From the NCBI GenBank assembly GCA_039621445.1, contig CP154954.1:10869521-10933520 (forward strand): DNA of 64,000 nt, written 5' to 3'. How positions within the stretch are numbered: position 1 is the stretch's first letter; each line of letters starts with the position of its first letter. Under the pieces are notes generated by a model. That model was not told the DNA's origin. It saw only the letters and a program-made list of their open reading frames with translations, and made no database searches. Position numbers and translations under genes: made by a program. The stretch comes from Euglena gracilis (Eukaryota). This document shows positions 28,801 through 32,046 of the stretch, piece by piece.

Positions 28801-31800
28801 TATGCGCATACACACACACACACACACACACACACACACGGAATTACAACATTCACACCACACACCATTTGGGATTGTTCATACTGTGATTGGGCTTGAA
28901 CTTCCCCCTCAGGATGCGGGAGAGCAATTTATTTGTGGCAGCATCATCGGTGGCACGCTTCTGTTCATCGGTCACATTTTGTTTTCCAGGCTGAGGATGG
29001 CGTGAACAACTTGGCCACCGCCCCTTTTTTGTTTAATGAGTTATTCCTGTGTCAGGATGTTTGAAGGCAAATCCTTGTTATAAGTGGCACACATCATTGT
29101 GTGCAATTTTGATGACTGTTGTGGGGAAACAAAACTTTTTTGGGTGGCCTCCAAATGCGTTCGCTACCTTATTCGAATTTGTTTGTGTACCATCCAAATT
29201 TCCCGAAATTGTCATTTTTCCCAACATGAAACACTTCTGCGAAAAATTGTATCATCCATCCAAAAAAAAAACACCAACATGTTTTGCCCTCCTCCCGCGG
29301 GGCTAATAATGGGGGGGGTGGCTTGTTGTTTGGGGACAAAACCAGGAAATTGGGCGGCTAAATACTTATGTATCTACTATATATGTATGTATATATATAT
29401 GTATGTATTTATATATATATATATCTATATCTATATCTATATCTATATCTATATCTATATGTATACTATGTATACTATGTATACTATATATGTATGTATA
29501 TATACTTCCATGAAATCAACTGTAAATTTGACCATTTATCACAGCCAGTGTGTCTTCGTCTTGCAATTACACATAAAATATCTACCGTGCCAGACTGTCA
29601 TAGTTGAAATGCACCAGCCAAATCATGGTTGAAATGCAGCAACTGGCCAGGCTCGGCAACGCCGAATGCACAGCCCGGCCAAACAGCAGCATGGCCGGCA
29701 TCGGCCAGGCCCTTGGTGTCGAACAGGTTGAGCGGGGCGGCGCCCTCCTGGCAGAGCAGGTCGCACAGCGCGTACCGGACCGTCTTGGAGGCGTCCCCGG
29801 CGCCCTGGAGAAGGAAGTCCACGAGGCACCTGGCCGAGATTTGCCACGTCGAAGCGCCGAAACAGAGCGACGTGGGGTGTTGCCTGCCCCACACCCGGAG
29901 AACCCGGAGAAACCATCACCTGAGAAGTCAGCCAGTGGCAACAAGCCGGGGTGCCAAAAAACTCCCGCAGAGCCCTGGTGGAGACCAGACTTCGTTTTGT
30001 GACCCGGGGGGTGAGCACCTATCCACCAAGCCCGGGAGCACAGAGAGGCCAGCCCGCCAAAAAAAATGGGGTCATCTGGAGGCGTTTCCCAAAAAAATGT
30101 TCGGTGATTTGTGTGAAACCCATACCTCGGGCCCCGGGGGGTCTAGCCCCAGATGCCCCTCCACCAATTGGCACCACCAAGAAAAGCCCCAAATAGCCCC
30201 GCTACGGAAAACCTCTTTCCAACCACATCTTACACTACCGACTAGTGTCAATTGTTTTCATTTGTCACCTGGACCCCCTGTCACGTTGGAAAGTCCAAAC
30301 CGGGATTCTTTTTGACCCCCCCCCCCCGGGAAGACCCGGGGGGGGGGGGACTGAGTTGGGGCACACAGCGTTGTATATTGTTTGGGAGGGCTTGATTCCT
30401 GGAAATAATCCCATACTGTTCAAAATTTTCAAATTCTGCTCGCGAATTTTGGCCTATGCCGTAATGGACAGGAGTCATCATCTGTCTCAAAAAAGGCAGC
30501 ACACGAGTATAATTGAACTGTTCAATAATGGTTCAGATCTTTTTAAACTATGTACTCTGATCAGATTGCACTGTTGACTGAACAACACAGCTGTGGCTTG
30601 CGTGCACGCATGCGTGCATGCGTGCGCGCAGGTGTGTCTCAAGGCTGGACAAGGAGGGGCGCCACCTCGTCACATAATCGGGCAGAGCTGCCAGTGAGAG
30701 TCTGGTAAATACTATTGATGAGGCTGGACTTGCCATTGCCTTGCCGGCCGAACAGCACACAATTCACCTGCGGGGATGGTTGCCTTGGAGTGGTTTTGAA
30801 CAGCTTGGCTGGGAAATTTCGACAGCAGTTGTTGTGGCTCCCTTGCCAGTACGGACAGTTCACTCAAATAAAAGGCCAATTGAAACAGAAAAAAAACAGG
30901 GAACAAAATGAGCACCCGTTCAGAACGAAAGAGAGGGGTGGGGAAGCCACAAAGAGTCGCACAGCGCTGTGCACCTGTCTGGTGGAGCTTTTGGGGAAGG
31001 CCTGTTTCAAGCGATCGAGGCTGCGCTGCAGCCGATCCTTGTCCAGCTGGTGGGAGGGTCCCGGCCAGGCTGTTTTTTTACCAACCTCGGGGGGGGGGTC
31101 CGGAGTGCCTGTGAGTGCCTGCCCAGGCAGGCACAACCGCCCCCGGGGTGGGGTCGGCACCCGACTAAACTACAGCCTGGCCTCGGCTCGGCTGGGCCGG
31201 CCATGCAACTCAGCCGGGCCCCCCCTGCAAAGGGAGGTCCGGACTGCCCCTCCCAGGCGTCTGGTCACCAACCCCAAGGTGGAGGGGTGGGGTGGGGTGG
31301 GGTGCCTGCTCATAACAGGCCCCCCTAACATAACAGGCCCCTCTAACATAACAGGCCCCTCTAACATAACAGGCATCCCCTTAGTTGCACTAAGGCTTCT
31401 TGTCTGTTTATGGCCGGCGCTAACTTCGCTTCCGGCCCAGCTTGCTGTGTGGTGAGTGGCCAGGGACCCCTTACACCCCCCCGGGCAGGCACCCCCCCCG
31501 GTGGGGGTTCAAAAGCCGGCCGATTCAGCCCACTGATCCTTGCCCATGGCCATTGTCGGCACCCAAGGGGATGCTACATATATCCACCTACCGCAAAGCC
31601 CGACCCCGTGTGTCTTCCGACCCCTCCCCCTGTTGGCCCATACCCCCCCTGGGGAAGGGAGGTGCGAACTTCCTGGCCCCAGCACAGTTTCAGAGAGCCC
31701 CGAGGGCTTCTGCCAGGAGTTTTTTAAGACCGGGGGGGAGGGGGTCCCCCCCACCCACCCACCCACCCCCCGGGGGGCCCCCCAGGGGGGCCACCCCCTG

Positions 31801-32046
31801 GGGGGCCCCCCAGGGGGGTCCCGGGGACACTGAATTTTCCCCGAAAATGGCCAAAAAATCGCATAAATGCTAAAAATAGCACTGTTTTCAAAAATTTTCG
31901 GCGCCTTTGGTGCCGAAAAGTATAACCCACTCCCCCCTGGGGGAAACTCCCCCCGGGGGGGGGGGGTGCTCGGCCGGACCCATCCACCCTCCCCCCTCTC
32001 CCCCCCAGGGGTCCACGACTAAAAAAAAAACACCTGGCTTCTGCAT
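19815..32046 (-). CDS. IFI44-like P-loop GTPase domain, multi-exon (either the 3' half of the upstream gene or a separate gene starting at ATG 32046)
   Basis: In-frame exon chain: 32048-32040 (9 nt), 31708-31592, 31260-31183, 31060-30975, 30767-30666 ([21 protein letters not shown], Walker A), 29804-~29649 ([13 protein letters not shown]3-like), ~28987-28866 ([10 protein letters not shown]), 28470-28300 (KVDAVVYV...[10 protein letters not shown]4-like), 25424-~25375, ~24806-24690 (PFCLAN), 21738-21692, 21399-21326, 20432-20392, 19898-19815 (TGA). Both GT-AG and nonconventional junctions occur. IFI44-like assignment is by motif pattern only. Confidence 0.7.
21405..21688. mobile_element. hAT-like MITE forming an entire nonconventional intron (intron 21400-21691)
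   Basis: TIR CAGGGTT / AACCCTG; perfect 8-bp direct repeat GTCATCAG at 21397-21404 and 21689-21696; removing the element plus one repeat joins ...VSQLM|TFGQQ in frame. Confidence 0.85.
22275..22556. mobile_element. GGCAGCC-ended foldback element with a telomere-like palindromic core, inserted in (ATATAC)n
   Basis: TIR GGCAGCCATAATCTACATGCCCC / GGGGCATGTAGATTATGGCTGCC, flanked by AT on both sides; core 22322-22506 is a ~80-bp-arm palindrome with TTAGGG/CCCTAA-like units. Confidence 0.8.
22858..23834. mobile_element. Second GGCAGCC-ended foldback element (core inverted) carrying a nested MITE
   Basis: TIR GGCAGCCCGAAACTACTGGCCCC / GGGGCCAGTAGTTTCGGGCTGCC, AT flanks; core palindrome ~22903-23088. 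Confidence 0.8.
23091..23788. mobile_element. Tc1/mariner/pogo-type MITE nested in the foldback element
   Basis: Perfect 40-bp TIR CTGTCATAGGAAAAAATAACATCCGGAAAAAATAACATCT; TA duplicated (23089-90, 23789-90); the empty site CCCCTGGA-TA-ATCTACATG is seen as its reverse complement at 22310-22328. Confidence 0.9.
24948..25105. repeat. (CATAT)n microsatellite
   Basis: Direct reading. Confidence 0.95.
27531..27652. repeat. (GCATCGCCCT)n decamer arrays; a matching array lies at 25669-25698
   Basis: Direct reading; probably subterminal repeats of an element spanning ~25650-27660. Confidence 0.8.
28125..28299. repeat. (CA)n / (CACACC)n microsatellite starting at a GT donor
   Basis: Direct reading. 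Confidence 0.9.
31066..31179. mobile_element. Short hAT-like MITE forming nonconventional intron 31061-31182
   Basis: TIR CAGGCTG / CAGCCTG; flanks match 6/8 (minus strand GCCGAGGC vs GCCGGGAC); both halves match the ends of the longer element at 1768-2266. Confidence 0.7.
31714..32036. mobile_element. hAT-like MITE forming an entire nonconventional intron (intron 31709-32039)
   Basis: TIR CAGGAGTTTTTT / AAAAAACACCTG; perfect 8-bp direct repeat GCTTCTGC at 31706-31713 and 32037-32044; internal sequence shared with copies at 3052, 5994, 12749 and 36572. Confidence 0.85.

Follow-up and report, generated by a model that had tools for sequence, protein, structure and literature searches.

A putative hAT-like MITE nested in a nonconventional intron of a Euglena gracilis P-loop gene, and an intron of the same gene made of one terminal-inverted-repeat element plus one 8-bp duplication

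We examined a 64-kb window of Euglena gracilis DNA (the whole stretch of 64,000 nucleotides that was analysed) around a 323-bp element at 31714-32036 that an earlier note had read as a nonconventional intron. Our results indicate, with a probability of about 90%, that this element is a MITE (a miniature transposable element with inverted repeats) nested in intron 12 of a P-loop gene rather than being an intron itself. The element with its duplication and family, the exon structure of the gene and the intronic position were all demonstrated in this analysis. In addition, the anatomy that had been proposed for the flagged element, an element plus one 8-bp duplication copy between coding exons, is exactly what intron 21 of this gene displays.

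The element has CAGG...CCTG ends and imperfect terminal inverted repeats, with 14-nt arms that are 93% complementary and termini that read CAGGA... and CAGGT.... It lies between two perfect (8/8) copies of the target-site duplication (TSD) GCTTCTGC, at 31706-31713 on the left and 32037-32044 on the right, just as the earlier note had described; no strand is assigned to these features or to the family copies. Read on the minus strand, its ends are AGC-CAG...CTG-GCAGA, followed by A. The terminal stem appeared in both the MFE and the centroid RNA folds (fold z = -4.4), and both junctions between element and flank were spanned by contigs in an independent DNA run. In the DNA run X10, contig depths summed to 4,804 and 21,369 in two bins of the element vs ~43-45 in the unique flanks, and this excess of about 100-500x is consistent with many copies but is not a copy number.

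The host gene was identified by the protein P0001 (EukProt EG_transcript_5013), a transcript-derived Euglena gracilis protein of 680 aa with a Walker-A P-loop, whose alignment gives 22 minus-strand exons. P0001 showed 93-95% identity to the window in exon 10, and its differences from the window in some exons indicate that it comes from another allele or strain. Exon 12 (32157-32264, minus strand, residues 368-403; RNA contig piece 32156-32263) was joined directly to mini-exon 13, the next after the host intron (31184-31209, minus strand, residues 404-411), in both the spliced RNA contig and P0001. The residues were placed at 32262-32155 (368-403), 31207-31184 (404-411) and 31064-30972 (411-441). 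Intron 12 thus occupies 31210-32156 on the minus strand with a slide of 2 nt, and the 947 nt that are removed in the mature mRNA (~32157 to ~31209) comprise the element and its two TSD copies together with flanks of 112 nt on the right and 496 nt on the left. Nomura et al. 2025 (PMC12501133) give the euglenid nonconventional intron code as 5'-N3CDG-/-CH'GN5-6|R. The ends of intron 12 (GGG-CGG...CCG-GCTGA, then G) agree with this code in the form N3-CDG...CH'G-N5|R.

The RNA evidence was taken from two raw RNA runs matched by species label (X21, X24) and one presumed-RNA contig run (X15); the one DNA run was X10. The minus-strand X15 contig (record 9, 1,569 nt) consists of pieces at 34694-34811, 33307-33475, 32521-32656 and 32156-32263, then 215 nt, and then 29686-29803. 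For the part of this contig from 32156 to 29803, the placement is deduced from lengths and P0001, whose exon lengths of 25+87+103 = 215 nt match the 215-nt stretch. We also considered, and dropped, a model that put an acceptor at 31089 (open frame, 115+100 = 215 nt): if exon 15 starts at 29803, the exon before it has 103 nt and this model totals 218 nt, against 215 for the P0001 structure. A short GT..AG 'intron' adjoining the right TSD was also discarded, as it had no RNA support. The RNA depth in the left-flank bin 31490-31669 was 0 in X21, X24 and X15, against 5-19 in the neighbouring exon bins in X21; such a depth gap alone is no proof of intronic status. A Pfam search of seven ORFs around the locus returned only sub-threshold P-loop matches, in the ORF at 30639-30863. 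The spliced contig, P0001 and RNA depth together place both flanks of the element within the intron, contrary to the earlier view that both are exons on the minus strand. We propose that intron 12, a nonconventional intron of 947 nt (32156..31210, minus strand), was already present in the 22-exon gene when the element entered it. Excision of that host intron at its own CGG...CCG ends would carry the element off passively, along with 608 nt of unique flanking intron sequence.

The strongest rival is nested splicing, by which the element would be cut from the pre-mRNA before or alongside the host intron and leave no trace in the mature mRNA. This is conceivable because the element satisfies the splicing code: judged by its letters, it has a candidate N3-CDG 5' end, a complementary CH'G-N5-6 3' end and a purine as the first base of the next stretch. 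Base pairing beside CAG and CTG would bring the ends together, as the terminal stem of the predicted folds suggests. Synthetic 50-bp sequences obeying the code were spliced from a foreign exon, according to the splicing-code paper (PMC12501133). On the other hand, a low-depth X15 contig (record 10, 32025-32175, depth 3.2) keeps the element end joined to its flank, and intronic depth is too low for intermediates to show. The 15 read joints listed of 220 all came from high-copy repeats; they include neither the real splice joints nor a 31709|32040 joint, and have no bearing on nested splicing or empty sites. We consider nested splicing unlikely, and retain the reading of a MITE removed with its host intron.

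The flagged family has five dispersed copies in the 64 kb. The earlier note had placed further copies at 3052, 5994, 12749 and 36572, and all four proved real, three of them with a TSD that matches in 7/8 positions (3052-3262, 5994-6259 and 36572-36855), next to 8/8 in the flagged copy and a degenerate TSD, 1/8 in register, at 12749-12977. The copy at 36572-36855, with the TSD pair GCCGCAAT/GCCGCAAC, lies within intron 7 of the same P-loop gene, 22 nt from an exon end. A scan of the window for CAG..CTG ends, a terminal inverted repeat (TIR) match of at least 11/14 and flanking 8-mers of at least 7/8 identity gave 6 matches in the exact register vs 0 in each of six shifted registers; one of the six was a low-complexity match inside another copy. 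A looser TSD/TIR scan was noisy (5 matches vs 0-11 in controls) and was left out of the conclusions.

These features suggest that the flagged element is a non-autonomous DNA transposon that probably arose by transposition, and its CAGG/CCTG termini and 8-bp TSD appear hAT-like. The terminal consensus of hAT transposons is a short TIR starting with (C/T)A(G/A)NG. Since none of the window's 150 longest ORFs of higher entropy matched a transposase family of Pfam, the probable hAT assignment draws on TSD length and terminal bases only. Rfam gave 0 matches in the window. Double-strand-break repair is a rival source for the 8-bp direct repeats of both intron 21 and the flagged element; it was favoured for a newly gained nonconventional intron of E. 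agilis gapC that has 8-nt direct repeats (PMC4770533). Against this, four of the five family copies, at unrelated sites, have repeats with at least 7/8 identity and of exactly 8 bp that abut conserved inverted termini. Exact 8-bp repeats set against inverted termini at unrelated sites are the signature of staggered cuts made by a transposase, and we regard break repair as very improbable.

The proposal for the region flagged at 31706-32044 was that the element with a single copy of the TSD forms a nonconventional intron between two exons, with cuts 3 nt ahead of CAG and 5 nt behind CTG that would restore the pre-insertion mRNA. It is next to untenable, even though the element's minus-strand ends (AGC-CAG...CTG-GCAGA|A) with their paired termini obey every sequence rule of the published code (PMC12501133): mature RNA contains neither flank, both the spliced contig and P0001 skip from ~32157 to ~31209, the three RNA runs have no depth at 31490-31669, and the ORFs of the region have no Pfam family except for the P-loop exon. 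The element's own ends were not found as junctions of mature mRNA in the spliced contig, in P0001 or in the RNA reads. That transcripts use other junctions is the outcome which the earlier note had itself named as refuting the claim, and the claim is refuted for this locus.

The same idea fared better at intron 21 of this gene, where the anatomy of an element plus one TSD was observed. Intron 21 is a nonconventional intron of 292 nt on the minus strand (21400-21691), composed of a 284-bp element (CAGGGTT...AACCCTG, 21405-21688) and one copy of a perfect 8-bp duplication (21397-21404 and 21689-21696). Across the join, the exons on either side match P0001 with 100% identity, and 11 junction positions are equivalent. 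The intron agrees with the published code as N3-CAG...CTG-N5|R. The 292 nt removed equal the 284-nt element and 8 nt. As the intron consists of a single TIR element and a single TSD copy, taking it out would leave an uninterrupted reading frame, although the transcript could derive from an insertion-free allele. No second copy of the intron 21 element was found in the 64-kb window. It was considered as a member of the flagged family and rejected, with local alignment scores of 22-27 vs 33-236 within the family; the likeness is limited to the termini.

In the code, the spacers of 3 nt and 5 nt sum to the length of the duplication, so an insertion into an exon could be excised exactly and leave the original mRNA. 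Code-fitting introns in the window are host intron 12, intron 21 and seven more. An excess of 8-mer identity in the 5+3 register had been predicted, and it was seen in a small sample from two genes: in the predicted register, 3/11 motif-bearing nonconventional introns reached an identity of 6/8 or more vs 5/198 controls. Introns 13 and Z5 each reached 6/8. The per-position identity profile across introns was noisy. We give an even chance to the broader view that euglenid nonconventional introns have a major source in CAG/CTG-ended transposons with 8-bp TSDs. On this view exonic insertions would be cut out exactly, intron 21 would be a young case, and older ones would include introns 13 and Z5.

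The origin and removal of euglenid nonconventional introns have been a puzzle since the 1990s, and a MITE origin is a standing hypothesis. Earlier work on these introns includes that of Milanowski et al. in 2014 and 2016, and the 2014 paper reportedly stated that no euglenid transposon had been identified by then. The 2025 splicing-code paper calls their origin unclear (PMC12501133). The earlier note was right that a MITE-like nature had been suggested before; the literature already contains the MITE origin, junction repeats that resemble TSDs and, for a recently gained intron, one 8-nt repeat. Among the openly accessible main texts searched, none set out the explicit 3+5=8 link or the hAT link. 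The window yields a concrete multi-copy MITE family with an 8-bp duplication and ends that equal the CAG/CTG motifs of the code, one intron composed of exactly an element and a single duplication, and a simple arithmetic link that is testable genome-wide. The flagged copy serves as a negative example, code-competent yet nested in another intron, and warns against calling introns by motif only.

Among known systems, hAT MITEs (Ac/Ds-like) share the 8-bp TSD and CAGG(G/A) termini with the flagged family, but no transposase or autonomous partner was found among the ORFs of the window that were searched. The flagged element resembles euglenid nonconventional introns in its ends, spacers, purine and terminal pairing, which match the code; unlike them, it is not bounded by exons, and its own ends are unused as mature-mRNA junctions. 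The introners of Micromonas and Aureococcus are MITE-like, with a TSD that supplies a splice site and removal of the element plus the TSD (Huff et al. 2016, as presented in PMC11282704). Intron 21 is likewise one TIR element plus one TSD copy; the introners, however, are spliceosomal (GT/GC-AG) with 3-bp TSDs, while intron 21 has nonconventional junctions with an 8-bp TSD. Intron 4 of gapC in E. agilis ACOI 323, described as recently gained and nonconventional with 8-nt direct repeats (PMC4770533), resembles intron 21 in being young and nonconventional and in carrying an 8-nt repeat at its junctions, but its authors read the repeat as break repair.

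The 323-bp segment with a CAGG start and a CCTG end lies at 31714-32036 (plus-strand reading) and is flanked by perfect copies of the 8-bp target-site duplication (TSD) GCTTCTGC at 31706-31713 on the left and 32037-32044 on the right, which confirmed the structure described over 31706-32044 in the earlier note. Its 14-nt terminal arms are 93% complementary. A BLAST search of the window with the element as query and subsequent inspection recovered all four relatives that had been listed, at 3052-3262 (flanking 8-mers CCCCGCAC / CCCCCCAC), 5994-6259 (CATCCAAG / CATCAAAG), 36572-36855 (GCCGCAAT / GCCGCAAC) and 12749-12977; the 8-mers agree at 7/8 positions in the first three and are dissimilar in register at the last (1/8). 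When the entire window was scanned for CAG...CTG ends, terminal complementarity of at least 11/14 and flanking 8-mers at least 7/8 identical, six matches turned up in the exact register, one of them low-complexity and within another copy, and none in each of six shifted registers. Two matches are extra CAG...CTG elements, at 499-942 and 15472-15720 (flanking 8-mers 7/8), whose membership of the family is not clear. Summed depth of DNA contigs (set X10) over the element was ~100-500x that of its unique flanks, a figure that does not equal copy number. X10 contigs also span both junctions of the element, so this independent data set carries the insertion as well. Element, duplication and family alike are real and go far beyond what chance would give.

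On the minus strand, the element reads AGC-CAG...CTG-GCAGA, then A; in the fold, the two termini are paired. With these end motifs and paired termini, it would satisfy every rule of the published nonconventional splicing code, 5'-N3CDG-/-CH'GN5-6|R. Natural and fully synthetic sequences obeying this code are reported to be spliced out of a foreign exon (PMC12501133). The arithmetic of the earlier note is also sound, as the spacers of 3 and 5 nt add up to the 8-bp duplication.

Coverage of 29510-34880 came from two RNA-seq runs, a contig set (X15) taken, as a guess, to be RNA, and a DNA contig set. A 1,569-nt X15 contig aligns on the minus strand to 34694-34811, 33307-33475, 32521-32656, 32156-32263 and later 29686-29803, with 215 nt between the last two blocks in pieces that were not itemised. 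RNA depth in this region was limited to the blocks of this contig, and in the bin 31490-31669, on the left flank of the element, it was 0 in 3/3 RNA data sets. When the translated exon 33308-33475 was used as a query, one protein was found, P0001 (680 aa, EukProt EG_transcript_5013), which aligns as 22 minus-strand exons from 42567 to 21330. Protein mapping placed its residues 368-403 at 32262-32155, 404-411 in a mini-exon at 31207-31184 and 411-441 at 31064-30972, all on the minus strand. The exon lengths 25+87+103 equal the 215 nt of the contig; an acceptor at 31089 was dropped, since it yields 218 nt with the next junction correctly placed.

Intron 12 of this gene is therefore 32156..31210 (947 nt), and it encloses the element and both TSD copies, together with 112 nt to the right and 496 nt to the left of them. 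Since all of these lie inside intron 12, the element is an ordinary nested insertion, passively removed with its host. Intron 12 is itself nonconventional (GGG-CGG-GACCCCCC...GGGGGC-CCG-GCTGA, then G), its ends match as inverted repeats at 14/20 positions, and it fits the code (PMC12501133). The element plus one TSD had been taken for an intron between exons; P0001, the X15 contig and the absence of RNA depth on the left indicate that both flanks are intronic, and transcripts use other junctions, the ends of intron 12, an outcome that the earlier note had named as speaking against it. The locus itself is ordinary. The copy at 36572-36855 is also nested, in intron 7 of the same gene, 22 nt from the exon end.

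A sub-threshold Walker-A P-loop is the one protein motif that could be recognised in this gene, and of the 21 introns derived from P0001, 10 are readable as GT/GC-AG and 11 are not. The mini-exon (31184-31209, minus, ~21-25 nt) encodes CMAGPAE(P) and sits between two nonconventional introns in a repeat-rich region. Intron 6 (2,552 nt) holds a 272-bp unit repeated perfectly four times in tandem at 38170-39265, between long CT and TG microsatellites. A repeat unit of ~100 nt at 31377-31478 and 34411-34512 had no Rfam match. Its summed depth was extremely high, both in the DNA run and in the RNA runs, with the strongest signal in the size-fractionated RNA library. Many DNA contigs leave out the adjoining 215-242 nt, a pattern suggesting that other copies carry nested insertions.

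The predicted structure does occur at another site. Intron 21 of the P-loop gene (21691..21400, minus, 292 nt) is exactly a 284-nt element, CAGGGTT...AACCCTG (21688-21405), together with one of the two copies of a perfect 8-bp duplication, CTGATGAC (21696-21689 and 21404-21397). Eleven junction positions yield an identical product, and GT/GC-AG ends occur in 0/11; the code is matched exactly by GAC-CAG...CTG-CTGAT, then G, and the termini pair in the fold. No second copy of this element was found in the window, and it shows no relatedness to the 323-bp family beyond the termini. Both neighbouring exons match P0001 at 100% identity. Elsewhere, some exons of P0001 differ from the window, so the protein could come from an allele without this insertion.

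We also compared the 8 nt preceding CDG with the 8 nt following CHG in 11 nonconventional introns with these motifs near their ends, from the P-loop gene and a ZNF183/RNF113-type zinc-finger gene. The latter (50532..45753, minus) has 9 exons matching the E. gracilis protein P0003, and 0/8 of its introns are readable as GT/GC-AG. P0002, a Logan-derived protein (183 aa, 92% identity), runs uninterrupted into the introns flanking exon 5 (47341-47997, minus), so its source is unspliced RNA or a genomic contig. Mean identity in the predicted register was 4.09 of 8 (individually 5, 4, 3, 6, 1, 8, 4, 4, 2, 6, 2), against 2.2 in shifted registers (n=88) and 2.83 in cross-intron pairs (n=110). Identities of at least 6/8 numbered 3, 2 and 3, respectively (binomial P ~0.002 against the control rate of 5/198). 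The three introns were intron 21 (8/8), intron 13 (31058-31187, minus, a 114-nt element; 6/8) and Z5 of ZNF183 (46981-47744, minus, a 748-nt element; 6/8), the last two with CAGG-type inverted ends. This apparent excess is suggestive only, because the sample is small, the motif registers were picked by the analyst, and two introns are problematic: in P7, CAG was paired with a non-complementary CCG, and P13 yields the P0001 product only with a 4+4 cut or if the alleles differ.

The idea of a transposon plus its TSD becoming an intron is plausible. Published work anticipated it in part, and intron 21 now supports it as one clean example in the window. The earlier note mentioned that a MITE-like nature of nonconventional introns had been suggested; such an origin was proposed in 2014, in a paper stating that no euglenid transposon had been identified by then (PMC3935182). 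In 2016, eight-nucleotide direct repeats were described at a nonconventional intron that a single E. agilis strain had gained, and the authors ascribed them to break repair (PMC4770533). The 2025 code paper set 'slidable' introns aside and called intron origin unclear (PMC12501133). No paper tying the 3+5 spacers to an 8-bp duplication or to hAT elements was found among the main texts of openly accessible articles. We give about even odds (roughly 0.5) to the broader reading that CAG/CTG transposons with 8-bp TSDs are a major source of nonconventional introns. A 2024 review described TSD-like repeats as frequent at nonconventional intron junctions, and introners that draw a splice site from their TSD are established among the spliceosomal introns of other eukaryotes (PMC11282704).
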